From NCBI GenBank assembly GCA_003599275.1, contig QZJG01000004.1, forward strand, positions 87 through 64,086: a stretch of DNA of 64,000 bases, written 5' to 3'. The notes under the pieces are model-generated. The model ran no database searches and was not told the DNA's origin. It saw only the letters and a program-made list of their open reading frames with translations. The position numbers and the translations under genes are program-made. This DNA is from Nitrospiraceae bacterium (lineage in GTDB: Bacteria > Nitrospirota > Thermodesulfovibrionia > UBA6902). This document shows, piece after piece, positions 2,688-25,571 of the stretch; positions within the stretch are counted from its first letter, which is position 1, and every line of letters starts with the position of its first letter.

Positions 2688-3275
2688 GTGAACAAGTCCG
2701 GTGCAGGCAGACATAACGATATCTCCCTGAAAATCCTCGACGAGCTGAGCCGCGAATCCCTTGTAACACAGCGGACCCTCTCAAGCAATCTCAACATCGC
2801 GTTAGGCCTGGTCAATGCATACATCAAAAGACTGGCAAAAAAGGGTTACATAAAAATCAACAAAGGCCCCATGAACAGGGTGAAATACGCCCTTACCCGG
2901 AAAGGTTTCACGCATAGAGTCGGCCTGACTTACCATTATATGCAATCTTCAATCGACTATTTCAAAGACGCACGGCAGAGAATTGACAATCTGTACGGGC
3001 AAATGATAAAAAACGGGGTCCAAACCGTCCTGATCTGGGGTGACGGAGAAATTGCGGAATTGTCGTATATTTCCCTGCGCGGCCTGCCGTTGGCCCTTGT
3101 CGGAGTGGTTGACGGCAAAAAGGAAGAAAAAGGGTTCTTCGGTCATCATATTTATTCATATGAAGACGTTTCAGGATTGAATTATGACGCGATATTGCTT
3201 GCGTCATTTAACAATACGGCATTGCAGAAAATAAGAAGCCTCGGTGTCGAGGCCGACAAGATTTATTCGCTGTAA
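2688..3275 (+). CDS. Winged-helix (MarR-like) transcriptional regulator with a C-terminal Rossmann/CoA-binding-like domain
   Basis: The N-terminal wHTH pattern (LSRESLVTQRTLSSNLNIALGLVNAYIKRLAKKGYI) is followed by VLIWGDGEIAE...DAILLASF. It sits directly upstream of the glycan operon. Confidence 0.6.
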   Translation: MNKSGAGRHNDISLKILDELSRESLVTQRTLSSNLNIALGLVNAYIKRLAKKGYIKINKGPMNRVKYALTRKGFTHRVGLTYHYMQSSIDYFKDARQRIDNLYGQMIKNGVQTVLIWGDGEIAELSYISLRGLPLALVGVVDGKKEEKGFFGHHIYSYEDVSGLNYDAILLASFNNTALQKIRSLGVEADKIYSL

Positions 3276-3287
3276 CATCAGAGTATA

Positions 3288-3336
3288 GAGTTGAGTTAAG
3301 CATTGAGTCTTGAATTTTATTCTTAACTCATAACTC
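3288..3336. repeat. Imperfect inverted repeat after the regulator gene (terminator-like or short repeat element)
   Basis: GAGTTGAGTTAAG ... CTTAACTCATAACTC has an 8-bp perfect core (GAGTTAAG/CTTAACTC) with a ~21-nt loop. Confidence 0.3.
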
Positions 3337-3469
3337 TTGACTCCCAACTCCATAGACCGGCAGGTTGCGATAATGTGACCGACACGGCGGAGCAGTGGAA
3401 AAATCATACATTAATACGGATACGGGCTGAAAGAAAATATATTAACCGATCAATAATGGAGAACTGAAC

Positions 3470-4444
3470 ATGATAAACGGAAAGACAGTTTTGATAACCG
3501 GCGGCACCGGTTCTTTTGGAAAGAAATGCACGGAAATAATTCTAAAGGAATACAAGCCGAATAAATTGATCATCTTCAGCCGGGATGAACTGAAACAGTT
3601 TGAAATGTCGCAGGTCTTTTCAGAGAAAAAATACCCCTGCCTTCGGTACTTTCTCGGAGATGTACGAGACAAAGACAGGCTCTACAGAGCGTTTGACCGT
3701 GTAGATTATGTTATTCACGCTGCAGCCCTGAAGCAGGTCCCGGCCGCAGAGCGGAATCCTTTCGAAGTCATAAAAACAAATATTCTCGGGGCAGAGAACA
3801 TTATCAACGCGGCCATAGACAGGGAGGTGAAAAGGGTGGTTGCCCTGAGCACTGACAAGGCAGCAAACCCGATCAACCTCTACGGCGCAACTAAGCTTTG
3901 TTCCGATAAACTTTTTATTGCAGGGAACTCTTATTCGGGAGCTCACGGGACAAGGTTTTCTGTTGTCAGGTACGGAAATGTCGTGGGCAGCAGGGGGAGC
4001 GTTATCCCGTTCTTTAAAAATGTAAGAAAGACAGGGACTATGCCGATCACCGACCCTGAGATGACACGCTTCTGGATAACCCTTGAGCAGGGAGTTGATT
4101 TTGTTCTTAAATGCCTTTCAATGACTGTCGGCGGCGAACTTTTTGTCCCCAAGATACCGAGTATGAACTTAATGGATCTTGCAAAAGCGATCGCCCCTGA
4201 CTGCAAATATGAAACTGTCGGAATAAGGCCGGGTGAGAAAATACATGAGGTCATGATAACTGAAGACGATTCCAGGCATACACTGGAATTTGATGATTTC
4301 TATATCGTTGAGCCAGAGTTCGACTGGTGGTCGAGTGATCGTCATATATCAAATGGCGGGCAGCCTGTTAAAGATGGATTCAGGTACGCAAGCAATACAA
4401 ATGACAGGTGGCTCTCGGTAGACGACCTGAAAAAATTGATTTAG
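3470..4444 (+). CDS. pseB: UDP-N-acetylglucosamine 4,6-dehydratase (inverting), PseB/FlaA1
   Basis: Near-colinear with Helicobacter FlaA1: ITGGTGSFGK, SRDELKQ, HAAALKQVP, STDKAANPINLYGATKLCSDKLF, VVRYGNVVGSRGSVIPFF, IRPGEKIHE. Confidence 0.92.
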   Translation: MINGKTVLITGGTGSFGKKCTEIILKEYKPNKLIIFSRDELKQFEMSQVFSEKKYPCLRYFLGDVRDKDRLYRAFDRVDYVIHAAALKQVPAAERNPFEVIKTNILGAENIINAAIDREVKRVVALSTDKAANPINLYGATKLCSDKLFIAGNSYSGAHGTRFSVVRYGNVVGSRGSVIPFFKNVRKTGTMPITDPEMTRFWITLEQGVDFVLKCLSMTVGGELFVPKIPSMNLMDLAKAIAPDCKYETVGIRPGEKIHEVMITEDDSRHTLEFDDFYIVEPEFDWWSSDRHISNGGQPVKDGFRYASNTNDRWLSVDDLKKLI

Positions 4445-4482: not shown

Positions 4483-5691
4483 ATGATACCTTACGGCAGA
4501 CAATGGATAGATGATGATGATATAAAGGCGGTTGTCGATGTCCTGCGCTCAAATTTCATCACTCAGGGGCCGAAAATAGATGAGTTTGAAAGGGTGCTTG
4601 CCGAAAGCTGCGGGGCAAAATACGCAGTAGCGGTAAATTCAGGCACCTCCGCGCTTCACATCGCCTGCCTTGCCGCCGGAACAGGAAAAGGAGATGACGT
4701 CATAACGTCACCCATCACTTTTATAGCTTCAGCCAACTGCGCGGCATACTGCGGTTCAAGGCCTGTTTTTGCCGATATCAATACTCGAACATACAATATA
4801 TCCGTTAGCAAGATAGAGAAGAAAATAACGGACCGCACGAAGATAATCATACCTGTGGATTTCGCAGGCCAGAGCGCTGACATGGAGCCTGTTTATATTC
4901 TGGCAAAAGAGAAGGGCAAGGAATTCAATAAGAAGATATTTGTTATCGAGGACTCATCTCAGGCGCAGGGCTCTTATTATAAAGGCAAGGCTGTAGGCTC
5001 ATGCGCGTTCTCAGATATGACGGTCATGAGCTTTCATCCTGTAAAACATATCACGACCGGCGAAGGCGGTGCTGTGCTGACGAATGATGAAGAACTGTAC
5101 TGGAAGTTGAGGAAGTTTAGAAACCACGGCATAACAAATATCCCCGGAGATTTTGTAAACAGGGAAGAGGCCTTTCAGCATGTCGAAGGGGAATTATCAG
5201 AAGCGCTTAACCCGTGGTACTACGAGCAGATAGACCTCGGATATAACTACAGGATAACAGATATACAGTGCGCACTTGGAATATCGCAGATGAAGAAACT
5301 GAACAGGTTCATAAAGCGGCGTCGCGAGATAGTCAGCATGTATAACGAATTTTTCGGCAGGATTGAAAATATTCAAACCCCTTATGAGTCTCCTGACTGT
5401 GACAGCAACTTTCATCTTTATATCCTTCTGGTTGAGTGGGCGAGGTTCGGCACGACAAGGGCGAAGTTCATGGCCGGGCTGAAGAAGAAAGGGGTGCATA
5501 CGCAGGTACACTACATACCAGTGCACACACAGCCTTTTTACAGGAAGAATTTCGGAACCGGATGGGGCGACTGCCCGAATGCTGAAGAATATTACCGAAA
5601 ATGCCTTTCAATCCCCATATACCCAGCAATGACGGACGATGATATAAAAAACGTCGCTGAAGCAATACGAGGAACTCTGAATGCCGGATAA
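4483..5691 (+). CDS. pseC: UDP-4-amino-4,6-dideoxy-N-acetyl-beta-L-altrosamine transaminase (DegT/DnrJ/EryC1 family)
   Basis: MIPYGRQWIDDDDI start, NSGTSALH, SFHPVKHITTGEGG (PLP-lysine region), and its position directly after pseB. Confidence 0.9.
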   Translation: MIPYGRQWIDDDDIKAVVDVLRSNFITQGPKIDEFERVLAESCGAKYAVAVNSGTSALHIACLAAGTGKGDDVITSPITFIASANCAAYCGSRPVFADINTRTYNISVSKIEKKITDRTKIIIPVDFAGQSADMEPVYILAKEKGKEFNKKIFVIEDSSQAQGSYYKGKAVGSCAFSDMTVMSFHPVKHITTGEGGAVLTNDEELYWKLRKFRNHGITNIPGDFVNREEAFQHVEGELSEALNPWYYEQIDLGYNYRITDIQCALGISQMKKLNRFIKRRREIVSMYNEFFGRIENIQTPYESPDCDSNFHLYILLVEWARFGTTRAKFMAGLKKKGVHTQVHYIPVHTQPFYRKNFGTGWGDCPNAEEYYRKCLSIPIYPAMTDDDIKNVAEAIRGTLNAG

Positions 5692-7201
5692 GATACTTTT
5701 GATAAGGCCGCAGAACGTTTACAACTATAACAATTATCCGCCGTTAAATCTTATCAGCATAGGCTCTGCGCTGAAGACAGCCGGATATGACGTGAAAATA
5801 ATAAATTGCGCCTTTGAGAAAAAGCCCCTGGAAGTCATCGGCAGAGAGCTGAACGGCGCATTGTTTGCGGGCATATCCCTTCTTACATCAGAGGCCCCTG
5901 ACGCCTACCGTATAATGCAATATATCAAAGAGATCTCAGATGTGCCTGTTGTTGTAGGAGGCTGGCACTGCACGTTATTTCCTGAGCAGATGGCAGGATG
6001 CGAATATGTTGACTACGTGGTTGCCGGAGAAGGAGAAGAGCATATCGTCAATGTTGCAGAGATGCTGAAGAACGGAGGAACGCGGGATAATAAAATTTAT
6101 CATAAAATAAACCTGGATCTTGATAGCCTTCCTCTGACCGCCTATGACTTAGACGAACACATAGAGCGGTCTATCGGCAATTATCTGACAGACAAGCTTT
6201 CAGAATATGTCAGCCATCCTATGAGATGGCTTCCTTATGAATCAAGCAGGGGATGCCCCTCGCTCTGCACCTTCTGCATTAATGTTGTGACAGATAACAG
6301 GCGTTACAGAAAGAAGAGCGCGGCAAAGGTTCTCTCAGAGATAGGGCATATAATAAAAAAATATAAGCTCACGCACTTGAAGATAGTAGACGACAATTTC
6401 TTTGTAGATATCAAACGCGTCAGGGAGATATGTCGGGGGATGATCGACATGGGTTTGAATATAACCTGGGACGGGGAATGCCGCTGCGATTATTTCAGGG
6501 ACGGGATGCTTGATGATGAAACACTGAAACTGTGCAGGAGATCGGGGCTTATCCAGTTGACGCTTGGGATCGAATCGGGCTCTCCCCATACTCTTGAGCT
6601 TATGAAGAAAGGCATCACGCCCGAGCAGGCGGAAAATGCCGTACGGAAGTGCGATGAACACAAGATAATAGCGAGGTCATCATTTATACTTGAGATCCCC
6701 GGGGAGTCTCTGGATGACATAAAGCAGACCATATCTTTTGTAAACAAGCTCAGGCGATATAAATATTTTACCTGCGGGGTCGGGACCTTCAGGCCTTATC
6801 CAAAGTGCGAATTGACAGAGAGGCTTTTAAAGGATGGCTATCTTACAGAGCCTTTAAATTTCAAAGAATGGACTGACAGAAATATTATTAATATGTATAC
6901 ATCAGCGGAGTACATCAGGCCCTGGCAGGTCAACGGGAAATATTCTGAAAGCGCCGCATACTATCTGAATATGGAGTCTGCCGTGAGGCTTGGAAACTTT
7001 CAGATTGACAGGAGGCTTGACAGGGTCAAGAACAGCCTCTTTATGTTTTTTGCAAAGTTGCGAAACGGGCTCATGTTTTATTCTTTCCCCTTTGACAAAA
7101 ATTTATACAAGAGATTTCTTTCAGCTTTTTACGAAAGAAGGCAGGAGCTTGAAAAGGGCGGCGCTTATCCGCTGGCTGACAGGAAAGAAGCGCGTCAGTG
7201 A
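5681..7201 (+). CDS. B12-binding domain radical SAM protein (class B)
   Basis: N-terminal cobalamin-binding-like Rossmann region (PVVVGGWHCT), then SRGCPSLCTFC (CxxxCxxC) and LGIESGS. It overlaps the pseC stop by 11 nt and the next gene by 4 nt. Confidence 0.85.
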   Translation: MPDKILLIRPQNVYNYNNYPPLNLISIGSALKTAGYDVKIINCAFEKKPLEVIGRELNGALFAGISLLTSEAPDAYRIMQYIKEISDVPVVVGGWHCTLFPEQMAGCEYVDYVVAGEGEEHIVNVAEMLKNGGTRDNKIYHKINLDLDSLPLTAYDLDEHIERSIGNYLTDKLSEYVSHPMRWLPYESSRGCPSLCTFCINVVTDNRRYRKKSAAKVLSEIGHIIKKYKLTHLKIVDDNFFVDIKRVREICRGMIDMGLNITWDGECRCDYFRDGMLDDETLKLCRRSGLIQLTLGIESGSPHTLELMKKGITPEQAENAVRKCDEHKIIARSSFILEIPGESLDDIKQTISFVNKLRRYKYFTCGVGTFRPYPKCELTERLLKDGYLTEPLNFKEWTDRNIINMYTSAEYIRPWQVNGKYSESAAYYLNMESAVRLGNFQIDRRLDRVKNSLFMFFAKLRNGLMFYSFPFDKNLYKRFLSAFYERRQELEKGGAYPLADRKEARQ

Positions 7202-8178
7202 AGATCCTCGTTGTCGGAACAGGCTCGATCGGGACAAGACATATAAAGAACCTTTATGAACTCGGACACGAGATTTTCGCAGTTGATACAAATGTAGAGA
7301 ACCTTAAGCAGGTTTTGTCACTGACGAAAAACAGCTATAATTCTCTTGAAGAAGCGCTGAAGGGCAAGCCTGACGCGGCATTCATCTGCACATATAGTAA
7401 TGACCATATGAGGCCGGCGCTAAAATGTGCTGAAGCGGGATGCCATCTTTTTATTGAAAAACCGCTTTCGACAAGCCTTGAGGGCATTCAGGAACTCCTG
7501 GATATTGCAGAGAGTAAGAAGTTGATCACAATGGTCGGCTGCAACATGCGGTTTCATCCGGCTGTGTCATATATCCATAAACAAATAAAATCCAATCGCT
7601 ACTTCACAAAACCTCTCTGGGGAAACTTTGAAACAGGCTATTTTCTGCCTTTTGATAAAGAGGACTATCAAAAGAGTTATAAGGCAAACAGGAGTATGGG
7701 CGGTAATCTGATACTTGATGCAATTCATGAGCTTGATTACGCTATATGGTTTCTCGGAGAACCGCAAGAGGTTATATGCAGCAAAGGGATCATATCTTCG
7801 TTGAAGATAGACACGGAAGACCATGTTGAGATGATTGTTAAATTCCGCTCAGGAGCCGTATGCACGATGCACATGGACTATCTGCAGCATGGCTATTCCA
7901 GGAGATGTAAAATTGTTTGCGAGGAAGGCACCGTGGTATGGGATTTTGTCGGAGGCAGCATCGGGAGCGTGACGGTCCAAGATGGGAAATGGGCATGGAA
8001 GGATATGAAGGTTGATATATCTTACAATCAGATGTATATAGATGAGGCCAGGTATTTCATGGACTGTGTTTCGGCAGGCAGGGCTACATTCAATTCAATA
8101 CGCGAGTCTATGCAGTCTTTAAAGCTCGCGCTTGCTGCTGACAGATCCAGCAGCACAAATCAGTGGGAGAAGGTCTGA
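7198..8178 (+). CDS. Gfo/Idh/MocA family NAD(P)-dependent oxidoreductase
   Basis: MKILVVGTGSIGTRH dinucleotide-binding N-terminus, EKPL motif and a C-terminal alpha/beta domain. The GTG start forms a GTGA overlap with the upstream gene. Confidence 0.85.
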   Translation: MKILVVGTGSIGTRHIKNLYELGHEIFAVDTNVENLKQVLSLTKNSYNSLEEALKGKPDAAFICTYSNDHMRPALKCAEAGCHLFIEKPLSTSLEGIQELLDIAESKKLITMVGCNMRFHPAVSYIHKQIKSNRYFTKPLWGNFETGYFLPFDKEDYQKSYKANRSMGGNLILDAIHELDYAIWFLGEPQEVICSKGIISSLKIDTEDHVEMIVKFRSGAVCTMHMDYLQHGYSRRCKIVCEEGTVVWDFVGGSIGSVTVQDGKWAWKDMKVDISYNQMYIDEARYFMDCVSAGRATFNSIRESMQSLKLALAADRSSSTNQWEKV

Positions 8179-8190
8179 AAGGGTTGTCCT

Positions 8191-9057
8191 ATGAGAAAGG
8201 TTATCGGCGTAATAACGGCAAGAATGGCTTCAACAAGGCTTCCCGGCAAGGTTATGCAGAAGATGGCAGGGAAATCCGTATTTGCTCATCATGCTGAAAG
8301 GATGATGCATGTGCGCGGGCTTGACGGCGTTTTTTTAGCGACATCGACAGATCCTTTAAATAAAACGCTACTAGAGGAGGCGGAAAACCTCGGCTGCGGC
8401 TGGTATGCAGGAGCAGAGCAGGATATCGTTGACCGCCATATCAAGCTCTGCGAAAGGGAAAAGGCTGACGCAGTTATACGGGTCACCTGTGATTCGCCGA
8501 TATTTGATATCGGGAGCGCTTCACGATTTATAGAGGAATTCAAAAAAGAATACAGGGATTATATTTATGTATCCAATATGACGATGATCCAGGGGACTCT
8601 CTCGGAGCTTATCTCTCATAATGCCCTCATGGAGGTCCACAAACATTATCGCGGCGCCGGGGTCTCGATGCATATAAAAGAGAATATGGATAAATTCAGG
8701 ACTCTGGGTATAGAGATCGATATTGATCTCTGCCGCCCGGAGTACCGCCTGACCATAGATGAATTAATAGATATAGAGATGATAAGGCATATATATGAGG
8801 CGCTCTATAGAGGACAGCCGCTCAGCCTTCATGAGGTTTACACATGGCTTGATGATAATCCGCATATCGCGAAGATGAATATGCACGTCGGGATAAAGGG
8901 GTGCGAGGTCCAGAGCGCGAATTTAACAGAGAAACCACTCTACTCAATTGTTGCATCAGGCAGCAGATATGTCATACTCGATGAACAGAAACGGCTTGTT
9001 GAGCCGGAATCTTTCTTGCAAAAGATGGCAGAGCTCTTTCCGGGTCTGAAGGCATAG
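8191..9057 (+). CDS. SpsF/acylneuraminate-cytidylyltransferase-like nucleotidyltransferase (candidate CMP-activating enzyme)
   Basis: VIGVITARMASTRLPGKV N-terminus is typical of the CMP-KDO-synthetase-like SpsF group. It lies inside the Pse operon. Confidence 0.75.
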   Translation: MRKVIGVITARMASTRLPGKVMQKMAGKSVFAHHAERMMHVRGLDGVFLATSTDPLNKTLLEEAENLGCGWYAGAEQDIVDRHIKLCEREKADAVIRVTCDSPIFDIGSASRFIEEFKKEYRDYIYVSNMTMIQGTLSELISHNALMEVHKHYRGAGVSMHIKENMDKFRTLGIEIDIDLCRPEYRLTIDELIDIEMIRHIYEALYRGQPLSLHEVYTWLDDNPHIAKMNMHVGIKGCEVQSANLTEKPLYSIVASGSRYVILDEQKRLVEPESFLQKMAELFPGLKA

Positions 9058-9062
9058 GGAAC

Positions 9063-10352
9063 ATGTCATCGCGTTATAAAAGATCAGAAGAACTGCTTGA
9101 AAAGGCATTGAAGATCATTCCCATCGGGTCTCAGACCTTCAGCAAAAGCATTACTCAATATCCTCTCGGAGTTTCTCCGCACTTTATAAAAAAAGGCAAA
9201 GGCTCTCATGTATGGGATGTTGACGGGAACGAGTATATCGATTTTGTAAATGCGCTGTGCGCCATAACTCTCGGCTATAATGACCCTGATGTCACTAATG
9301 CAGTAAAGGCTCAGCTTGAAGACGGCACTATATTCACCCTCCCGCATGAGCTGGAGATAAAGGTCTCTGAAAAGGTCATTGAGATAGTGCCGTGTGCCGA
9401 GATGGTGCGATTCGGCAAGAACGGCTCGGATGTCACTTCCGGCGCAATAAGGCTGGCACGGGCACATACAAAGAGAGACCATGTTGCTGTATGCGGTTAT
9501 CACGGCTGGCAGGACTGGTATATAGGCTCTACAAGCCGCAATCTCGGAGTACCAAAAGCGGTTTCTGATCTGACACATGTCTTTACATATAATGACTTAA
9601 ATTCTTTGCACAGGATCTTCAAGGAGTATTCCGGACAAATAGCCGCTGTTATCATGGAGCCGATGAATGTTAAAGAACCGGTAGATAATTTTCTGGCAAA
9701 AGTTAAGGAATTGACGCATGAGAACCAAGCTGTCTTTATCTTTGACGAGACGATCACCGGTTTCCGTTTTGCAGAAGGCGGCGCTCAGAAATATTTTGGA
9801 GTTATCCCTGACCTCGCAACATTCGGCAAAGGATTGGCAAACGGGTATCCTGTATCAGCAATCGCGGGTAAGGCAGAGATAATGAGGATGATGGAGGAGA
9901 TATTCTTCTCCTTTACCTTTGGCGGCGAGACCTTGTCACTTGCCGCTACGCTTGCTGCAATGACAAAACTGCAGAGAGAGCCTGTGATAAAGACGCTATG
10001 GTCTCAGGGATCAAAAGTTATCAAAGGGACAAATGCCTTGATCGAAAAATATGCGTTGGGAAATGTCTTGTCAACCGCCGGCAAGGACTGCTGGTCATTT
10101 CTGTTGTTCAAAGATACGGACGTTTATTCCCAATGGGAACTGAAGACCCTTTTTTTACAGGAAGTATTTGCCAGAGGAGTTCTGACCGTCGGGACTCATA
10201 ACATGAGCTATGCCCACACAGATGAAGATATCTCAGCACTCTTAAATTGTTACGATGAGGTTTTTGGAATACTCAAGAACGCCATAACAAATAATAGATT
10301 AAAGGAACTATTGAAGACAAAGCCATTAGTTCCTTTGTTTAAGATAAGGTGA
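9063..10352 (+). CDS. Class-III aminotransferase, glutamate-1-semialdehyde 2,1-aminomutase-like
   Basis: GSHVWDVDGNEYIDF, FDETITGFR and the FGKGLANGYP PLP-lysine region. Confidence 0.85.
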   Translation: MSSRYKRSEELLEKALKIIPIGSQTFSKSITQYPLGVSPHFIKKGKGSHVWDVDGNEYIDFVNALCAITLGYNDPDVTNAVKAQLEDGTIFTLPHELEIKVSEKVIEIVPCAEMVRFGKNGSDVTSGAIRLARAHTKRDHVAVCGYHGWQDWYIGSTSRNLGVPKAVSDLTHVFTYNDLNSLHRIFKEYSGQIAAVIMEPMNVKEPVDNFLAKVKELTHENQAVFIFDETITGFRFAEGGAQKYFGVIPDLATFGKGLANGYPVSAIAGKAEIMRMMEEIFFSFTFGGETLSLAATLAAMTKLQREPVIKTLWSQGSKVIKGTNALIEKYALGNVLSTAGKDCWSFLLFKDTDVYSQWELKTLFLQEVFARGVLTVGTHNMSYAHTDEDISALLNCYDEVFGILKNAITNNRLKELLKTKPLVPLFKIR

Positions 10353-11830
10353 ATATCTTTATCCGCACAGATGCATCAATAGCTATCGGCACGGGACATG
10401 TGATGCGCTGTCTCACTCTGGCCGATGAGCTGAGGGAAAAGGGAAATGAAATAAGATTTATCTGTCGCAAAGCGCCGGGTAATTTTATCGAATTTATTGA
10501 AGTTAAAGGATACAGAGTTTATTCTTTGCCTGCGGATATCGATTTGCCAGCCGACAGGGATCTAACTCAGGAAATACTTCAGAAACAGCAGAACTCCATA
10601 GACTGGTTAATAATAGACCATTATGGAATTGATGCCTCATGGGAAACACCTTTACGGGAGTTTGTGAAAAAAATAATAGTCATTGACGATCTTGCCAATA
10701 GAAGGCATGACTGTGATATTCTGCTTGACCAGAATTATAGCAGTGATGTGAAACGCTATCAGGGATTAGTTTCCGAAGAATGTATTCAGCTTTTGGGTGC
10801 TGAATATGCATTGTTAAGGCCGCAATTCCGGAAAGCGCGGGAGAACTTAAAAGAAGATAGCAATGAGGTGAAGAGAATTTTAGTTTTTATGGCAGGTGGA
10901 GACCCGTCAAATGAAACATGGAAAGTATTACAAGCCTTAAAGTTGCTTTGTAGAGACGATGTTGTTCTTGATGTTGTAATCGGATCTTCAAATCCGTTCA
11001 AAAATGAACTTGAAATATTAATTGAACAGATGCCCGGCGCTGCCTGTTATTTCAATGTGAAGAATATGGCAGAACTGATGTCTTCTGCTGATATTGCCAT
11101 AGGCGCCTGCGGCACAAGCACATGGGAAAGGTGCTGCTTGGGTTTACCGGGCATAGTTATGGTGCTTGCAGATAATCAGAAAGAGATAGCGGAAGAACTT
11201 GATAAAGAAGGCGTGGTTGTTAATCTTGGATGGCATGAAAATGTGACGGTAATGGATATTAAGGATGCTGTAGGGAACTTGATGAAAGATCCGGACAAAA
11301 GAAAGAAGATGAGTTCTAAAGGCAGGGAAATGGTTGATGGGAAAGGGGTTGTTCGGGCAGCGCATTATATGAATAGTTCCGTAGATGGCACTGAAAACAT
11401 ATATATTAAAAATGCTGATCATAATGATATGGATGATCTGTTTAGATGGAGGAATGATCCTGAGATAAGCAAGAACTTTTTCAATGCTGATCCTGTTTCG
11501 CGGGAAACCCATGAAAAGTGGTTCAGAGAAAAAGTGAATGATATCGGGTCTGCTATCTATATGGCCTATTACAGGTCAGACAAGATCGGTTCGGTCAGGT
11601 TTGAAAGCAAAGAAGATGTAATAAAGACAAGTGTTATTTTAAGTCCTGAATATATCGGCAAAGGGCTTGGTGCTGAAATCATAAGAATTGCCGCAGACAG
11701 ATTCATAAAAGAAAAAAGCCCGGCAAAACCGATCATTGCTGAGATAAAAAAAGAGAACATAAGGTCTGCGAAGGCCTTCCAAAAGGCCGGCTTTATAGAG
11801 AGTTTTTTTACATATGTTTTCCCTTATTAA
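10349..11830 (+). CDS. pseG: Bifunctional UDP-2,4-diacetamido-2,4,6-trideoxy-beta-L-altropyranose hydrolase (PseG) / GNAT N-acetyltransferase (PseH-like) fusion
   Basis: N-terminus IRTDASIAIGTGHVMRCLTLADEL is PseG-like. The C-terminal ~150 aa form a GNAT fold (LFRWRNDPE...GKGLGAEII...AKAFQKAGF). Confidence 0.85.
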   Translation: MNIFIRTDASIAIGTGHVMRCLTLADELREKGNEIRFICRKAPGNFIEFIEVKGYRVYSLPADIDLPADRDLTQEILQKQQNSIDWLIIDHYGIDASWETPLREFVKKIIVIDDLANRRHDCDILLDQNYSSDVKRYQGLVSEECIQLLGAEYALLRPQFRKARENLKEDSNEVKRILVFMAGGDPSNETWKVLQALKLLCRDDVVLDVVIGSSNPFKNELEILIEQMPGAACYFNVKNMAELMSSADIAIGACGTSTWERCCLGLPGIVMVLADNQKEIAEELDKEGVVVNLGWHENVTVMDIKDAVGNLMKDPDKRKKMSSKGREMVDGKGVVRAAHYMNSSVDGTENIYIKNADHNDMDDLFRWRNDPEISKNFFNADPVSRETHEKWFREKVNDIGSAIYMAYYRSDKIGSVRFESKEDVIKTSVILSPEYIGKGLGAEIIRIAADRFIKEKSPAKPIIAEIKKENIRSAKAFQKAGFIESFFTYVFPY

Positions 11831-11839
11831 AGAGATACT

Positions 11840-12898
11840 ATGAAGATGGAGATAAGAATAGGCAGCAGAACCCTTGGACAGGGGCATCCGGCTTACGTTA
11901 TCGCTGAGGCTGGTTCGAACCACAACCATGACTTTGAAATGGCAAAAGCATTAATTAAGGCTGCGGCTGAAGCAGGCGCGGATGCGGTCAAGTTCCAGGC
12001 TTTCAGGGCTGAGGAACATTATTCCAAACATACACCCGGTTTCACTTATCTGAAAGAACAGGGGCATCAGGAATCGACATATGAATTGATACGTTTCCTG
12101 GAGATCAACAGGGATTGGCACGCCCCTCTCATCGAGTATGCAAAGTCATGCGCCATCACCTTCCTTTCTTCTCCGTGCGATAAAGAGGCTGTTGACCAGC
12201 TTGGGAATCTCAATATGGCAGCTTTTAAAGTGGCATCGTTTGATCTCCCGGATATCTACCTGATAAGGCATATGGCCAAATATGGGAAACCGGTTATCCT
12301 TTCCACTGGAATGGCTGACTATGCGGATATAAAGGCTGCCATACAGGCGTGTCTACATGAGGGGAATGAGAATGTAATATTATTGCAATGCACTTCTCTC
12401 TACCCTGCGCCTGCGTATTTATCCAACTTAGCCGCAATGGAAACAATGCGCAAGGCTTTTGATTGTCCTGTCGGATATTCAGACCATACAACAGGAGATC
12501 ATATCTCGCTTGCTGCCGTGGCATTGGGAGCCTGTATGATTGAAAAACATTTTACCCTTGACCGGAAACTGTCCGGACCGGATCATGGCTTTGCAATCGA
12601 GCCTCCTGAGCTTTCAGAGATGATCCGCAAGATAAGGGAGATAGAAAGCGCGATCGGCGACGGCATTAAAAACGGGCCGCTTAAAGAGGAAAAAGAGATG
12701 TTTGAAAAAGGGAGGCGCAGCCTGCATACAAAGCGTGCAATTAGCGCAGGGGAGTCTATCACAAGGGACGATATATGCATAAAACGGCCGGGGTACGGGA
12801 TCTCTCCTCATTCACTGGAAAGCCTGATCGGGATGACCGTGTGCCGGGATATTCCCGAAGACCACTGGATAACATGGGAGGACATTAAAAGCCGGTGA
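11840..12898 (+). CDS. pseI: Pseudaminic acid synthase (NeuB family, with C-terminal SAF domain)
   Basis: VIAEAGSNHN, GADAVKFQ, KVASFD, ILSTGMA, GYSDHT, IEKHFTLD, plus a SAF-like tail. PseI is assigned from context; PseI versus LegI/NeuB cannot be decided by eye. Confidence 0.85.
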   Translation: MKMEIRIGSRTLGQGHPAYVIAEAGSNHNHDFEMAKALIKAAAEAGADAVKFQAFRAEEHYSKHTPGFTYLKEQGHQESTYELIRFLEINRDWHAPLIEYAKSCAITFLSSPCDKEAVDQLGNLNMAAFKVASFDLPDIYLIRHMAKYGKPVILSTGMADYADIKAAIQACLHEGNENVILLQCTSLYPAPAYLSNLAAMETMRKAFDCPVGYSDHTTGDHISLAAVALGACMIEKHFTLDRKLSGPDHGFAIEPPELSEMIRKIREIESAIGDGIKNGPLKEEKEMFEKGRRSLHTKRAISAGESITRDDICIKRPGYGISPHSLESLIGMTVCRDIPEDHWITWEDIKSR

Positions 12899-13890
12899 AC
12901 ATTTCCAGGCAACATACCATTCTTGTGACCGGTGCTGGAGGGGCTGCGATTCCGGCATTGATAGAATCGTTGCGTAAAAACGGATATCGGGTCCTTGCCG
13001 CTGATATGGATCCAATGGCTGTGGGCCTGTATTATGCGGACCGCGGCTACGTAATTCCTGCCGGGACAAGCCCTGATTTCATACCGGCCCTCCGGGATAT
13101 ATGCAGGAAAGAATCAGTAACCGCGATAGTGCCACTGGTGGATGAGGAATTAGTGTCTGCTCTGGAACTGGAGAGGGACGGCTTGATCGTGCTTTTGCCA
13201 AGGCAGGAGTTTGTGGCATTGTGTTTAGACAAGTATGTTCTTATGCAGAGACTGAAGGAGTCGGGCATAACGATTCCGGAAACACGTCTTGCCTCTGAAG
13301 GCTCTGACGGCATGAGCTTCCCGCTCATTGTTAAGCCGCGGCGCGGCAGAGGAAGCCGCGGATTAAAGATAGTAGGATCAGATCAGGCTTTGCGTTCACA
13401 TATCGAGTCCTGCCCTTATTCACCTGATGAATTGCTGCTTCAGGAATATATAGACGGTCCGGAATATACGATCTCGGCAGTGGTATGGAGGGATGGTGAG
13501 GTTCAGGCCGTAGTGCCGAAGGAGATCATATCAAAGCGCGGCATCACGCGGATGGCTGTTACGCGCAGGAATCCGGCGATAGAATCATTATGCTTCAGCG
13601 TGCAGGAGAGCCTGAAAGCGGACGGGCCTTTTAATGTTCAGCTTCGTTATGACAGTAAAGGCAGGGGGCCGCTGATATTTGAGATCAACCCCCGTTTTTC
13701 CACAAGCATATCATTGACGATGGCAGCCGGGATAGATGAATTGGGCGGGCTGTTGTCACAGGCTATCTTCGGCAGAAAGAGTTTTATGTTCGGAGCCTGG
13801 CGCGAGGGTATTGTGATGATAAGAAAATCACTGGATGAGTTCATGGATGAAAAGGATTTTAATAACCTCAGAAGGAAGATAGCTGATTGA
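12895..13890 (+). CDS. ATP-grasp domain protein (carbamoyl-phosphate-synthase-like ligase)
   Basis: ILVTGAGGAAIP N-terminus, PLIVKPRRGRGSRG and FEINPRFS ATP-grasp signatures. GTGA overlap with pseI. Confidence 0.8.
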   Translation: MNISRQHTILVTGAGGAAIPALIESLRKNGYRVLAADMDPMAVGLYYADRGYVIPAGTSPDFIPALRDICRKESVTAIVPLVDEELVSALELERDGLIVLLPRQEFVALCLDKYVLMQRLKESGITIPETRLASEGSDGMSFPLIVKPRRGRGSRGLKIVGSDQALRSHIESCPYSPDELLLQEYIDGPEYTISAVVWRDGEVQAVVPKEIISKRGITRMAVTRRNPAIESLCFSVQESLKADGPFNVQLRYDSKGRGPLIFEINPRFSTSISLTMAAGIDELGGLLSQAIFGRKSFMFGAWREGIVMIRKSLDEFMDEKDFNNLRRKIAD

Positions 13891-14813
13891 GAAAGACGAT
13901 ACTGCTGACAGGCGCGGGAGGATTTCTCGGCACACATCTCGCTGAGCATCTGGCCTCTATCGGCATGGATGTGATCCCTGTATTCAGGACCGCCGTATAC
14001 AAAGTGGACAGCGGCCGCTGGGAAGCTGACCTTACCCGGCCTGACCACATGCTGCAGCTCCGGGAGGCAGAGGTTATTCCGGATGTGGTCATCCATCTTG
14101 CCGGGCATATAGAGATCGCACTGGAGCCTGACCCTGTTTCTGCTTCAATGCCTCCTGTGCCTGGAAAAGAGAATATCCATGAATTGTATAACTCAAATAT
14201 TATGACCACGGCAAACATCCTGGATTATTGTCTGCATAAAGGCGTAAGGCATATCATATACGCATCATCACAAACAGTCTATGGAATGCCGGCCGGCGCG
14301 AAGATCACTGAGGAATCCCCATGTGTTCCGCTTGAGCATTATGCATCAAGCAAGCTTTGCAGTGAACATCTGCTGAAGGTCGGCACGAGGCAGGGTGTTT
14401 CTGTAACAGTATTGCGTTTCCCAGGCCTGTATGGTGAAAAACGTTCGTCCGGCGTCGTGTATAACTTTTGCAGGTCTGCACTGGCGAAAAAGGAAATACG
14501 GGTTGACATCGCCATGCCTTTGCCATTTGATGTTATTCATGTAGATGATGTTGCAGCCGCCATTGGAAAAGCAGCAGGCTTTCGCGGCAATGGCTGGACA
14601 TGCCTCAATGTGGCTACAGGTGAGCCCTGCAATTTAAATCTCCTCGCAGATGCGGTCGCGGAACTTGTCCCGGGATGCGGGCTGAAATATTCTGCCATAC
14701 CTCAGCCTGTTGTCTGCATGGATTCCTCAAAGGCGCATGCTGTTTTAGGCTGGAAGGCCTTGCCTCGCCGCGAAAGGCTGACCGCCATGATAGATTTCCT
14801 GAGCCGCAAATGA
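13887..14813 (+). CDS. NAD-dependent epimerase/dehydratase (SDR)
   Basis: ILLTGAGGFLGTHL (GxxGxxG) and YASSK (YxxxK). TTGA overlap upstream. Confidence 0.85.
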   Translation: MRKTILLTGAGGFLGTHLAEHLASIGMDVIPVFRTAVYKVDSGRWEADLTRPDHMLQLREAEVIPDVVIHLAGHIEIALEPDPVSASMPPVPGKENIHELYNSNIMTTANILDYCLHKGVRHIIYASSQTVYGMPAGAKITEESPCVPLEHYASSKLCSEHLLKVGTRQGVSVTVLRFPGLYGEKRSSGVVYNFCRSALAKKEIRVDIAMPLPFDVIHVDDVAAAIGKAAGFRGNGWTCLNVATGEPCNLNLLADAVAELVPGCGLKYSAIPQPVVCMDSSKAHAVLGWKALPRRERLTAMIDFLSRK

Positions 14814-15595
14814 TCGCAGGCATGTGTGGAATTGTGAGGGAAGTCGGGGAGCTGCTACTTGAATGGCGGGACTCTGAAATATTTGAAGGAAAATGGGAAG
14901 GCGCGCAGTTCAAGGCAAAGGTTGACCGGATGGCACATAACGCATTGACAGAACGGCTGCATGAATTATCACCGGAGATCCCGGTGATCAGCGAGGAGGA
15001 TGCGTCTCCATTCACTTCGATCCGTCCCGGCTGCTACTGGCTTATTGATCCGATAGACGGCACGGCGAGCTTTGTTAACGGCTACAGCGGTTTTGTTACA
15101 CAGGTGGTCCTCATGAAGAATGATCGTCCTGAATTTGCTGCTATCTATGCTCCTCTTCTCGGCGAGATGTATAGCGCAGAAAAGGGATCCGGATCATTTC
15201 TTAATGATGCAAGGCTTAAGGTTGATTCGGGGAAGAAGCCGGCAATATTGATCGATAATTATCCTGAGCCGAGAGGCGTTGCCGCATCCCTGTATAATGA
15301 GCTGAACTTCAGCCGGTATGTTGAATGCGGCAGCATCTCTCTTAAGATATGCAAGGTAGCGGATGGTACGGCTGATCTATTCTTTAAATCAGTAACAGTG
15401 AGAGATTGGGATATAGCGGCTCCACAGCTCATTCTTGAGGAGGCAGGAGGCTTTCTTAAGGAATGCGATGGGAGTATGGTTAGATATGACGGCAGCTTTG
15501 AGCATGATGGTATTGTGGCTGCTGCGTCTGATGAGGCATGCGCGGGTGCAGTTTCCTGGTATGATAACTTCAAAAAAAGGGAGACAATAAGATGA
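14810..15595 (+). CDS. Inositol monophosphatase / CysQ-family phosphatase
   Basis: ISEED, WLIDPIDGT and RDWDIAAP motifs. I chose the ATG at 14810 (ATGA overlap with the upstream stop) over the track start at 14675, which overlaps the previous gene by 139 nt. Confidence 0.8.
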   Translation: MIAGMCGIVREVGELLLEWRDSEIFEGKWEGAQFKAKVDRMAHNALTERLHELSPEIPVISEEDASPFTSIRPGCYWLIDPIDGTASFVNGYSGFVTQVVLMKNDRPEFAAIYAPLLGEMYSAEKGSGSFLNDARLKVDSGKKPAILIDNYPEPRGVAASLYNELNFSRYVECGSISLKICKVADGTADLFFKSVTVRDWDIAAPQLILEEAGGFLKECDGSMVRYDGSFEHDGIVAAASDEACAGAVSWYDNFKKRETIR

Positions 15596-16275
15596 AGATA
15601 CTTGTCATAGCTGCGCATCCGGATGATGAGGTGCTGGGATGCGGCGGGACCACAGCAAAATTGGCAAAGCAAGGCAACGATGTCCATGTGCTCATACTTG
15701 GTGAGGGGGTTACGTCACGAGACGACAAAAGGAACAGGCCGGCAAGGGGGGAAGAAATCCGGCAGCTTAAGCGTCAGGCTGAGAAGGCGCATAAATTACT
15801 TGGCATCAAGAAGACCTTTCTTTATGATTTTCCCGACAACAGGTTTGACACTGTCCCTTTGCTGGATATAGTGAAAGCTATCGAAAAGGTCAAGAAGGGC
15901 ACTATGCCGGAGATCGTGTTTACTCATCATAGAGGCGATTTAAATATCGATCATCAGATAACGTTCAGAGCTGTCATGACGGCGTTCAGGCCGGTAAAAG
16001 GTGAAAGGGCCAGGGAAATTTATTCCTTTGAGATAGCATCTTCAACAGAGTGGAGTGTTCCTTCAGCGTCTGATCATTTTATGCCGAACTATTTTTCGGA
16101 TATATCAAAGACTATTGCGCAAAAAATAAAGGCCATCAATGAATACAAGTCTGAAATCAGGGCGTTTCCCCATCCCCGCTCTGCGGAATCTGTTAAGGCA
16201 TATGCCGTGCGGCGCGGGATACAGGCCGGGCTTCCGGCAGCAGAGGCTTTCGAGATCATAAGAATAATAAGATAA
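15592..16275 (+). CDS. PIG-L/LmbE family N-acetyl-sugar deacetylase
   Basis: ILVIAAHPDDEVLGCGG and HHRGDLNIDH motifs. ATGA overlap upstream. Confidence 0.85.
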   Translation: MKILVIAAHPDDEVLGCGGTTAKLAKQGNDVHVLILGEGVTSRDDKRNRPARGEEIRQLKRQAEKAHKLLGIKKTFLYDFPDNRFDTVPLLDIVKAIEKVKKGTMPEIVFTHHRGDLNIDHQITFRAVMTAFRPVKGERAREIYSFEIASSTEWSVPSASDHFMPNYFSDISKTIAQKIKAINEYKSEIRAFPHPRSAESVKAYAVRRGIQAGLPAAEAFEIIRIIR

Positions 16276-16286
16276 GGAGACTGATC

Positions 16287-16832
16287 GTGACCCCGGTATT
16301 TTTAGAAGGCAAAGATATATTTCTCGGCCCCTTAACAGGGGAAGCGAAGATGGAGGGCTATGTCAGCTGGTTGAACAATCAGGAGACTACGCTGTTCATG
16401 GGAAGCGGAAGGTTCCCGATGGATGATGAAGACATAAAGAAATACATCGCCGCGTTCAGTAAAAGTAAAGATGGGATGATATTAGGGATCTTCCTGAAAA
16501 AACCAGCGAGGCATATCGGCAATATAACTCTTCATATGATCGATTGGAGAAACAGTAATGCTGAGATCGGAGTGATGATCGGCGACAAGAAGGCACGCGG
16601 AAAAGGATATGCTACGGAAGCAATCCATCTTGTAGCTGACCATGCATTTAACAAGCTTAATCTACATAAACTCTATACCGGCATGATAAAGGGCAATGAG
16701 GCATCAAGGCGGGCTTTTGAAAAGGCTGATTTTAAGATAGAAGGTATATTGAAGGAACATTTTTATCTCAATGGCGAATATCTTGACTGCTACAGGCTTG
16801 GAATTCTAAGAAAGGAGAATATAAAGAAATGA
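16287..16832 (+). CDS. GNAT family N-acetyltransferase (RimJ/RimL-like)
   Basis: ARGKGYATEA acetyl-CoA loop and ASRRAFEKADF. Confidence 0.85.
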   Translation: MTPVFLEGKDIFLGPLTGEAKMEGYVSWLNNQETTLFMGSGRFPMDDEDIKKYIAAFSKSKDGMILGIFLKKPARHIGNITLHMIDWRNSNAEIGVMIGDKKARGKGYATEAIHLVADHAFNKLNLHKLYTGMIKGNEASRRAFEKADFKIEGILKEHFYLNGEYLDCYRLGILRKENIKK

Positions 16833-24641: not shown

Positions 24642-25571
24642 ATGATACCCAAAAGCAATGAGATCAGGTTTGAAGTATCAACGAGATGCAATTATAACTG
24701 CATTATCTGCCCCAGGGAAAAACTTATCAGAAAGAAAGAGACGATGGGCCTGAAGCTTTTCAAAGAGCTGTTCGACCGGATAAGAGCAGAAACTGGCCAG
24801 TATGATACATTGACATTCCCCGGCATGGGCGAGCCTCTTATGGACAGGTCCCTCGGCAAAAAGATCGAATATACCAAAAAGAAAAACTTTACCGTGCTGA
24901 TGCTGACTAATGCTTTTTTTCTCACGGTTGATAAGTTCAGGGAACTTGAAGCACACGGCCTTGACTCTATAAGGGTGAGCCTTTATGGAGACACACCCGA
25001 GTCTTATAAAAAGGTGCACAGGGTGCTTGCTGCCGGGACTTTCGAGAAGATAAAGAAGAACCTCACAAAGATCTCAAAGATAAAGAGATCAACACAGCTT
25101 CTTCTTACATATAATGTTGTTGAAGGGATCAATGATACTGAAACGCAGCAATGGATAGACTACTGGTCTGATAAGGCTGACCTGCTGGAAGTCTGGCGCC
25201 CGCATAACTGGGCCGGCGGCAGGGGCTACAGGAATGTGCAGGAAAAGAAGCTCAAGACATGCGGCCGCCCTTTCAATACTCCGCTTCAGATCCAAGTGGA
25301 CGGCACTGTGAATATGTGCTGTTTTGATTTTAACGGGGAACTGCTTCTCGGCGACCTCAGGACTCAGTCTCTTAAAGATATATTCAGATCCCCGATGTTC
25401 AAGAAGATAGTTAAAAGCCACACTTCGGGCAATTTCAAAAAGAGCTGCCTCATCTGCGAGGACTGCGACCAGAGGAACTCTGACAAGTCTGATGTGATGG
25501 TATATAACTCAAAGTTCGATATAAAGGAGAGAGTGAAGACCGTATCCACTACCTATCAGAACATAGTTTAG
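24642..25571 (+). CDS. Radical SAM protein with C-terminal SPASM/twitch-like Cys cluster
   Basis: STRCNYNCIICP (CxxxCxxC), GEPLM, and a C-terminal CGRP...MCCFD...CLICEDCDQ. Confidence 0.85.
   Translation: MIPKSNEIRFEVSTRCNYNCIICPREKLIRKKETMGLKLFKELFDRIRAETGQYDTLTFPGMGEPLMDRSLGKKIEYTKKKNFTVLMLTNAFFLTVDKFRELEAHGLDSIRVSLYGDTPESYKKVHRVLAAGTFEKIKKNLTKISKIKRSTQLLLTYNVVEGINDTETQQWIDYWSDKADLLEVWRPHNWAGGRGYRNVQEKKLKTCGRPFNTPLQIQVDGTVNMCCFDFNGELLLGDLRTQSLKDIFRSPMFKKIVKSHTSGNFKKSCLICEDCDQRNSDKSDVMVYNSKFDIKERVKTVSTTYQNIV

Follow-up and report, generated by a model that had tools for sequence, protein, structure and literature searches.

A class-B-type radical SAM gene paired with a cytidylyltransferase gene in nonulosonic acid loci of diverse anaerobes

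A radical SAM gene within a pseudaminic acid-type locus

Bacterial surfaces and biofilm matrices, and recognition by phages and the immune system, are shaped by nonulosonic acids such as sialic, pseudaminic and legionaminic acid. To our knowledge, all of the described steps in their biosynthesis are two-electron chemistry, and the canonical six-enzyme pathway to pseudaminic acid (Pse) has no radical step. What, then, does a gene for a radical S-adenosylmethionine (SAM) protein do in the middle of a Pse-type locus? Such a gene was found in the metagenome-assembled genome of a Nitrospiraceae bacterium (GenBank assembly GCA_003599275.1), in a stretch of 64,000 nucleotides of contig QZJG01000004.1 (positions 87 to 64,086 of the forward strand) that is referred to here as the window and numbered from its first letter. 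An initial annotation, made from the letters of the window without database searches, described the gene as a class-B (cobalamin) radical SAM gene hard-wired into the core of the Pse genes, and proposed that its product modifies either the UDP-4-amino-4,6-dideoxy-hexose intermediate or the nonulosonate itself, for example by C-methylation. Comparison of related loci showed that the tightest partner of the gene is a cytidylyltransferase gene rather than pseC, and the protein very probably serves this nonulosonate pathway as a tailoring enzyme of the class-B type.

The radical SAM gene lies at positions 5681 to 7201 on the + strand and encodes 506 residues. It begins with an ATG preceded by GAGGA, and both of the overlaps described initially were confirmed: the stop codon of pseC (TAA, 5689-5691) gives an 11-nt overlap at the start, and at the end the four letters GTGA (7198-7201) are shared with the next gene, which encodes a Gfo/Idh/MocA-type oxidoreductase (hereafter Gfo) beginning (M)KILVVGTGSIG. 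Homologues of the radical SAM protein across phyla were 63-93% identical, and dN against five orthologues was 0.13-0.21 with synonymous sites saturated, so that no dN/dS ratio is given. Because of this similarity, the low dN at saturated dS, and a confident AlphaFold2 (AF2) model (mean pLDDT 88.8, pTM 0.87), the open reading frame is a real gene under strong purifying selection and not a chance reading frame.

The domains and motifs of the initial annotation were all recovered from the Pfam matches and the translation. The N-terminal B12-binding domain, which is flavodoxin/Rossmann-like, spans residues 17-125 (positions 5729-6055, + strand; PF02310, 56.0 bits, cutoff 32.1), and the radical SAM core spans residues 187-354 (6239-6742, + strand; PF04055, 65.5 bits, cutoff 29.5). 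The sequence SRGCPSLCTFC at residues 189-199 contains the CxxxCxxC motif (C192-x3-C196-x2-C199, codons 6254-6277), and these three cysteines were invariant in both close and distant relatives. LGIESGS at residues 295-301 contains the GGE-like SAM-binding motif, GIESGS (296-301), in which G296, E298, S299, and S301 were conserved in the family. The only further cysteine conserved family-wide was C267, within E266-C267-R268, so no auxiliary cluster is expected, and a second Fe-S cluster was rejected as a feature of this protein. The N-terminal domain has conserved GG (93-94) and GEGE (116-119) motifs and lacks the histidine of a DxHxxG motif, which class-B enzymes usually do not have. G93, G94, H96, and G118 were kept across the family.

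The AF2 model consists of three parts: a five-stranded Rossmann-like N-terminal domain (five strand-helix units, residues 4-130), a six-unit partial TIM barrel (six strand-helix units, residues 183-369), and a helical C-terminal domain. This architecture is shared with OxsB (5UL3), TsrM (6WTE), AprD4 (6FD2), MgmA/QCMT (9CCB), CysS (9N1D), and TokK (7KDY), which were the top Foldseek matches in the PDB, with E-values from 1e-19 (OxsB) to 3e-12; MiaB and RimO ranked beneath these class-B enzymes. In a search of the PDB with a profile of 36 family members, the N-terminal domain was matched to the domains of OxsB, TsrM, and TokK that bind cobalamin, while the alignment with AprD4 covered the radical SAM core alone. 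A PDB sequence search gave generic class-B similarity only. The CxxxCxxC motif, the Radical_SAM model, the partial barrel, and GIESGS place the protein in the radical SAM superfamily. Its B12-binding domain ahead of the radical SAM core is the class-B-type architecture, and the Pfam domains, the AF2 fold, Foldseek, and the family profile thus agree with the class first assigned. Use of cobalamin is predicted from this architecture; a B12-type domain can also be without cobalamin, as in AprD4.

The comparison with known families was less specific than the class assignment. The protein scored far under the cutoff of every NCBIfam model, including BchE (139.7 bits, cutoff 481.35), HpnJ (123.2, cutoff 577.6), the ladderane-lipid enzyme (122.3, cutoff 360), P-methyltransferases (about 105-110, cutoffs 575-600), PhpK (104.6, cutoff 600), RiPP C-methyltransferases (93.4, cutoff 281.85), MgmA (91.1, cutoff 360), AprD4 (42.6, cutoff 500), and KedN5 (23.7, cutoff 700). 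Membership in the BchE, HpnJ, or AprD4 families was not supported by these curated equivalog cutoffs, and of the enzymes that the initial annotation named for comparison, CysS was a distant fold match and BchE a model match far under its cutoff. The solved class-B enzymes are all 15-20% identical to the protein, none is a nonulosonate enzyme, and their chemistries span methylation, ring contraction, and dehydration; at that identity and with that diversity, function cannot be transferred from them. In a survey of 1.84 billion representatives clustered at 50% identity, the core family formed one cluster (970 bits), with about nine sister clusters at 41-46% identity (380-488 bits), beyond which the matches graded into generic class-B proteins without a break; 1,763 representatives had E<1e-30. 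At 90% clustering there were at least 265 clusters with E<1e-100.

Linkage of the radical SAM and cytidylyltransferase genes

To find the genes that accompany the radical SAM gene, 103 loci were gathered from GTDB genomes, metagenomes, and exact-protein look-ups, and the proteins of the window were mapped onto each. Linkage was counted in the 72 non-redundant loci with a radical SAM homologue of at least 43% identity; individual loci are given here by number. A gene for the same SpsF-like cytidylyltransferase as in the window followed the radical SAM gene in 45 of the 47 loci with enough downstream sequence (the exceptions were L058 and L075). Eighteen of these 45 pairs were directly adjacent and 27 had the Gfo gene between them, as in the window. 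Identity to the window copies covaried between the two proteins (Pearson 0.85, Spearman 0.90). The linkage also held from the other side: three cytidylyltransferase homologues were picked separately, on long contigs that did not match those of the listed radical SAM matches, and all three adjoined a radical SAM gene.

Pse genes were frequent upstream neighbours. The pseC gene was directly adjacent in 26 of 43 loci, and either pseB or pseC was directly upstream in 31 of 43, which bears out the co-occurrence with pseB and pseC that the initial annotation put forward for checking. The order pseB-pseC-rSAM (rSAM, radical SAM gene) recurred across phyla, and in an ANME-2 archaeon the order was DegT-rSAM-Gfo-CMPtr-ATIII (CMPtr, cytidylyltransferase; ATIII, class-III aminotransferase). 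The gene is therefore hard-wired into the Pse core, as was first claimed, although its partnership there has to be restated, with the cytidylyltransferase (45/47) ahead of pseC (26/43). Hosts of the related loci included Nitrospirota, Thermodesulfobacteriota, 'Deltaproteobacteria', Scalindua and Brocadiaceae (anammox Planctomycetota), Omnitrophota, Saganbacteria, Actinomycetota, and a metagenome-assembled Flavobacteria genome, in addition to the archaeon. The adjacency of the radical SAM and cytidylyltransferase genes is thus near-obligate across at least eight phyla and one archaeon.

The smallest arrangement was that of L037, pseB-pseC-rSAM-CMPtr-pseG-GNAT-pseI, with 11-nt and 4-nt overlaps identical to those in the window. 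This is a canonical Pse operon in which PseF has been swapped for the radical SAM/cytidylyltransferase pair. The Gfo gene, found in 27 of the 45 pairs, and the class-III aminotransferase gene, which usually co-occurred with Gfo, are accessory genes. The unit of the module is the radical SAM gene plus a dedicated cytidylyltransferase gene, extended in the window by an oxidoreductase and a transaminase. Proteins of about 645 residues encoded downstream were also considered as a common partner and were rejected; they were not homologous among the loci by BLAST, and that of L037 was unrelated.

The pair was not confined to loci with a Pse-type synthase. Most of the related loci encoded a canonical PseI (470-500 bits, cutoff 340.25; L006, L012, L101, and L102 are examples), and in others the pair was found beside NeuB/LegI-type synthases (L056, at 410 bits and over the NeuB cutoff, L058, L068, L076, L079, L022, L024, and L035), in L076 together with a LegC-like transaminase. 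In L022, L024/L025, and also L008, the pair was accompanied by two GNATs, a dehydratase resembling PseB, and a synthase resembling NeuB, and no DegT transaminase or PseG was found within 17-21 kb. In L022 the place of the Gfo gene is taken by one for an aldo-keto reductase.

Loci with the Gfo and transaminase genes tended to have a second N-acyltransferase (the window, L024, L101, and L102), while L037 had just one, in what is a small sample. Many of the related loci carried Wza, Wzz, Wzx, or Wzy genes, which indicates that the product enters a surface polysaccharide.

The cytidylyltransferase partner

The cytidylyltransferase of the window (positions 8191 to 9057, + strand, 288 residues) matched CTP_transf_3 (PF02348, 61.2 bits, cutoff 22.6) and is 100% identical to the NCBI hypothetical protein C4560_00430; JGI names the protein SpsF. 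Its CTP loop, ARMASTRLPGK, aligned with ARYGSSRLPGK of KdsB, and a CDSP motif was present. The AF2 model (pLDDT 85.6) was closest in fold to a Leptospira cytidylyltransferase (6OEW, TM 0.88, rmsd 2.0 A, 22% identity), followed in Foldseek by CMP-Kdo, CMP-Neu5Ac, and CMP-Kdn synthetases. Compared with 6OEW there was a C-terminal extension of about 60 residues, an additional beta-hairpin and helix. By domain, CTP loop, and fold, the protein is a member of the CMP-ulosonate synthetase family, and its substrate is predicted on the same grounds.

The PseF model scored 12.1 bits on this protein, against a cutoff of 205.7, and no second cytidylyltransferase was present among the open reading frames scanned in the rest of the window. 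Canonical PseF is thus replaced by an SpsF/KdsB-like cytidylyltransferase. Canonical PseH was not found in the window either, as its GNATs scored 36-43 bits against a PseH cutoff of 93.1, and divergent or unrelated proteins probably take over the functions of PseF and PseH. The namesake of the cytidylyltransferase, SpsF (COG1861), belongs to the sps legionaminic acid pathway of Bacillus subtilis, for which we know of no radical SAM partner.

Cytidylyltransferase and radical SAM genes were also found together in other combinations. A fused 'spiro-SPASM' model, TIGR04321, had a weak N-terminal match to the cytidylyltransferase (E 0.002) and a C-terminal match to a radical SAM-SPASM protein encoded elsewhere in the window (53 bits). 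Triads of B12-type radical SAM, cytidylyltransferase, and radical SAM-SPASM genes occurred in L011, L076, and L078; in L048 one other gene separated the cytidylyltransferase from the SPASM gene, and in L052 a SPASM gene was nearby. Separately, L011 holds two cytidylyltransferase domains: one is fused to a GT2 glycosyltransferase (2873-4261), directly upstream of a B12-type radical SAM gene whose product is 48% identical to that of the window, and the other is the separate cytidylyltransferase before the radical SAM-SPASM gene.

Proposed timing and chemistry of a radical step

The evidence favours the nonulosonate, free or as its CMP ester, as substrate rather than the UDP-4-amino sugar, so that of the two substrates offered by the initial annotation the second is preferred. 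PseB, PseC, and PseG are canonical in the window, PseI is canonical in most relatives, and PseF is the enzyme that was replaced, which argues that the change comes late in the pathway. The same is argued by the portability of the pair to NeuB/LegI loci and to loci without DegT and PseG, and by the recurrence of cytidylyltransferase and radical SAM genes together in the triads and in the parts of TIGR04321. The pathway itself is probably one to a 5,7-diamino-nonulosonate, Pse-type in this locus, that feeds a Wzx-type polysaccharide.

Under this explanation, PseB, PseC, a PseH-like GNAT, PseG, and the synthase would assemble the nonulosonate as usual, and the radical SAM enzyme would act afterwards, on the free nonulosonate or on its CMP ester. 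A 5'-deoxyadenosyl radical would abstract a hydrogen atom, and the methyl group of methylcobalamin would most likely be transferred to an unactivated or carbinol carbon, for example C8, C9, or C4. The SpsF/KdsB-like enzyme would then be a dedicated CMP-ulosonate synthetase, forming a two-gene module with the radical SAM enzyme. A precedent for the proposed mechanism comes from fosfomycin synthesis, in which a class-B radical SAM enzyme, Fom3, is likewise coupled to a cytidylyltransferase domain, that of Fom1. The true substrate of Fom3 is cytidylylated by Fom1, and methylation takes place at its carbinol carbon. The analogy has its differences: the Fom1 domain is from another nucleotidyltransferase family, and the substrate is a phosphonate and not an ulosonic acid.

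In loci like that of the window, Gfo would oxidise a hydroxyl, the class-III aminotransferase would transaminate the product, and the extra amino group would be acylated by the second GNAT or by an ATP-grasp ligase. By analogy with WbpB/WbpE, KdnB/KdnA, and GenD2/GenS2, conversion of a hydroxyl into an extra amine is probably the role of the Gfo and class-III pair. Gentamicin synthesis likewise brings a Gfo dehydrogenase, a pyridoxal phosphate-dependent transaminase, and a class-B radical SAM enzyme to one sugar in its amino-sugar tailoring (GenD2/GenS2/GenD1, and GenK). This likeness is one of enzyme type, as the gentamicin substrates are pseudo-oligosaccharides rather than nucleotide- or CMP-sugars, and GenS2 is a DegT-type enzyme whereas the transaminase here is of class III.

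C-methylation was put first because most of the characterised class-B enzymes are methyltransferases, and because carbinol carbons, in sugars or in substrates linked to CMP, are what GenK, GenD1, and Fom3 methylate. On this analogy it is the likeliest chemistry. The explanation as a whole, with late action, C-methylation, and a two-gene module taken together, is nevertheless advanced only tentatively, and several observations weigh against it. Fold and profile searches did not separate methylases from OxsB, which catalyses a ring contraction, or from AprD4, a dehydratase without cobalamin; as fold matches the methylases MgmA, CysS, TokK, and TsrM were no nearer than OxsB or AprD4, so the C-methylation suggested initially is not separable from other class-B chemistries. 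Every NCBIfam model being far beneath its cutoff belongs with these points. The conserved Cys267 would also fit a role as hydrogen donor, as in radical epimerases, and the position of pseC directly upstream in 26 of 43 loci also fits early action. The identity of pseB covaried with that of the radical SAM protein nearly as well as that of the cytidylyltransferase did (r=0.81 compared to 0.85). Finally, we know of no C-methylated nonulosonic acid that has been described.

Radical chemistry other than methyl transfer, acting equally late on the nonulosonate or CMP-nonulosonate, is rather unlikely but is the alternative that survives best. The options would include a BchE-like O2-independent hydroxylation or oxidation, an AprD4-like dehydration of a diol or amino alcohol, an epimerisation with Cys267 giving the hydrogen, or an OxsB/HpnJ-like rearrangement of the carbon skeleton, and in window-type loci the resulting carbonyl or hydroxyl would feed Gfo and the class-III aminotransferase. 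OxsB was the top fold and profile match with AprD4 in the top five, and the highest NCBIfam scores were those of BchE and HpnJ, but the gaps between matches were small with none near a cutoff, and the B12 domain aligned with true cobalamin binders while AprD4 aligned over the core only. Conservation of C267 would suit such chemistry. So would the class-III transaminase in many loci, as enzymes of this class typically use aldehydes or ketones, and L036 and L022 have one but no Gfo, which suits a carbonyl made by the radical SAM enzyme; however, most loci with the pair, such as L037, have no transaminase or reductase to handle a carbonyl. All of the host lineages are anaerobes, in which radical enzymes stand in for oxygenases, yet methylation is the commonest class-B outcome.

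Early action is unlikely. Here the substrate would be the 4-keto or 4-amino-4,6-dideoxy-hexose that PseB and PseC make in nucleotide-linked form, and the enzyme would either C-methylate it or, like DesII, deaminate or rearrange it by radical chemistry; the downstream enzymes, including the cytidylyltransferase, would then be adapted to the altered skeleton. The gene arrangement is consistent with this, since the 11-nt overlap with pseC is found in both the window and L037, pseC directly precedes the radical SAM gene in the 26 loci already mentioned, and pseB does so in L008 and L024. The order also parallels the logic of desosamine synthesis, in which a 4,6-dehydratase and a DegT transaminase are followed by the radical SAM enzyme DesII and a second transaminase, and the window synthase is atypical, under both the NeuB and PseI cutoffs. 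Against early action, PseG here and PseI in most relatives are canonical equivalogs, which is unexpected with an altered substrate; the invariant neighbour is the cytidylyltransferase and not pseC; and the pair has also settled in loci of the NeuB/LegI type and in others that have no DegT or PseG.

It is quite improbable that the pair leaves the nonulosonate skeleton alone and makes or tailors a separate CMP-activated or N-acyl substituent, for example by methylation of an N-acyl side chain, or another CMP-linked acid for the glycan. In favour of this reading, the cytidylyltransferase is distant from PseF and is extended by about 60 residues at its C terminus, genes for acyl remodelling (ATP-grasp, PIG-L, GNATs, and formyltransferase) abound in the loci, and in L011 a second CTP_transf_3 domain is joined to a GT2 glycosyltransferase. 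Against it, the cytidylyltransferase is the only one in the window locus and in minimal loci such as L037, which would otherwise have no enzyme to activate the nonulosonate with CMP; it has the fold of CMP-ulosonate synthetases; and no PEP mutase or other gene supplying an alternative acid was found.

Implications of a possible radical step in nonulosonate synthesis

Late C-methylation by the two-gene module, if correct, has a consequence for the product. Through radical chemistry that depends on cobalamin and takes place on a CMP-sugar, the module may make a nonulosonic acid whose carbon skeleton is altered, for example C-methylated (branched or ten-carbon), which is a proposal more tentative again than the explanation it builds on. 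If true, sialic acid-like sugars would gain a new structural class and nonulosonate biosynthesis its first radical step, the few known substrates of class-B radical SAM enzymes would be joined by a CMP-sugar, and the modified sugars would be on the cell surfaces of anaerobes from at least eight phyla, among them Nitrospirota, anammox bacteria, and ANME-2 archaea. A conserved and horizontally mobile B12-type radical SAM gene in these loci implies a modification that is outside current glycan catalogues and mass spectrometry libraries, in hosts (Nitrospirota, anammox bacteria, Omnitrophota, and ANME archaea) that are environmentally important and hard to culture. The pair of a radical SAM gene and an SpsF-like gene could be used as a genomic marker that predicts a modified sugar. 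For enzymology, the UDP-4-amino sugar, Pse, and CMP-Pse form a defined set of substrates, and the seven-gene cassette of L037 is a minimal one for reconstitution.

In open-access full-text literature, no radical SAM or B12-binding enzyme linked to the synthesis of pseudaminic, legionaminic, or nonulosonic acid was found. In a 2026 review of radical SAM enzymes that depend on B12, the words sugar, glycos-, cytidyl-, and aminoglycoside do not occur. PmdC was dismissed as a lignin-pathway dehydrogenase. Undescribed nonulosonates with oxonium ions of 261, 275, and 289, spaced by CH2 steps, and with a free amine have been reported from Ca. Kuenenia stuttgartiensis (Pabst et al., bioRxiv 10.1101/2020.12.03.409086). 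A search with the Brocadiaceae orthologue of the radical SAM protein returned no homologue named as Kuenenia, and the Kuenenia sugars are a lead only.

The surrounding polysaccharide locus

From 2.7 to 31.6 kb every gene of the window is on the + strand, in a single polysaccharide locus. Compared with the PseB-PseC-PseH-PseG-PseI-PseF pathway of Campylobacter and Helicobacter, the window matches PseB, PseC, and PseG at the equivalog level and has a GNAT and a NeuB-family synthase; it differs in the SpsF/KdsB-like replacement of PseF and in a synthase under the PseI cutoff, and it adds the radical SAM gene, the oxidoreductase, the class-III transaminase, and an N-acyl remodelling block. The pseB gene (3470-4444, + strand) encodes the inverting UDP-GlcNAc 4,6-dehydratase (TIGR03589, 534.7 bits, cutoff 407.75), and pseC (4483-5691, + strand) the UDP-4-amino-4,6-dideoxy-AltNAc transaminase (TIGR03588, 498.9 bits, cutoff 423.5). 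Upstream of pseB, a winged-helix protein (HTH_24 in Pfam; 2688-3275, + strand) has homologues in the same position in L009, L010, L011, L012, L014, and L022, and is a candidate for a dedicated regulator of such loci.

The Gfo/Idh/MocA gene, assigned by Pfam to an NAD-dependent oxidoreductase, occupies positions 7198 to 8178 (+ strand) between the radical SAM and cytidylyltransferase genes, and its product showed weak similarity to UDP-GlcNAc 3-dehydrogenase and inositol 2-dehydrogenase. Downstream of the cytidylyltransferase gene, positions 9063 to 10352 (+ strand) encode the class-III aminotransferase (PF00202), which is glutamate-1-semialdehyde (GSA) aminomutase-like (PRK06209, 441.9 bits, cutoff 486) and whose matches in the PDB were GSA aminomutases and transaminases of class III, C-6' aminotransferases among them.

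PseG, the UDP-sugar hydrolase, is encoded at 10349-11830 (+ strand; TIGR03590, 316.1 bits, cutoff 153.55) with a C-terminal GNAT that is PseH-like and under the cutoff (36.2 bits, cutoff 93.1, residues 359-483). PseG and the PseH-like protein are thus fused in the window, and PseG and the GNAT are separate genes in L101 and L037. The NeuB-family nonulosonate synthase (11840-12898, + strand) was intermediate between the NeuB model (372.7 bits, cutoff 399.65) and the PseI model (314.7 bits, cutoff 340.25), with the higher score to NeuB and both scores below cutoff. A close orthologue of this synthase (78%) was found only in L030, and the canonical PseI proteins of most relatives are about 35% identical to it.

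The genes that follow (12895-16832, + strand) form an accessory block of an ATP-grasp ligase, an SDR protein, a CysQ/IMPase-like phosphatase, a PIG-L de-N-acetylase, and the second GNAT. The first four (12895-16275) recur as a unit in L009, L055, L060, and L102, with a metallophosphatase in place of the IMPase-like gene in L102. This block probably strips an N-acetyl group and adds another N-acyl group on the nonulosonate or a precursor, and its occurrence was independent of the Gfo/transaminase pair. The IMPase-like reading frame (14675-15595, + strand) overlaps that of the SDR protein (13887-14813) by 139 nt and its Pfam match begins only at residue 46; translation probably starts later, near 14.8 kb.

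Two large proteins are encoded next (16829-18763, 644 residues, and 18793-20895, 700 residues, both + strand), neither with a significant Pfam family. The 644-residue protein has a weak asparagine synthase-like region in NCBIfam and orthologues at 55-63% identity in L005, L006, and L022, and a 645-residue protein of L103 with a weak Asn_synthase match is its probable counterpart. These large proteins may be an amidotransferase or a transferase for the nonulosonate. Further downstream are methyltransferases, Wzx, glycosyltransferases, and the second radical SAM gene, which is of the SPASM type (24642-25571, + strand, 309 residues) and adjoins an FkbM methyltransferase gene (25635-26615, + strand). 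The coding strand switches from + to - at a convergent junction (31575/31584, about 31.5 kb), where the cumulative GC skew also peaks; this peak is probably an effect of the transcribed strand and not a replication landmark.

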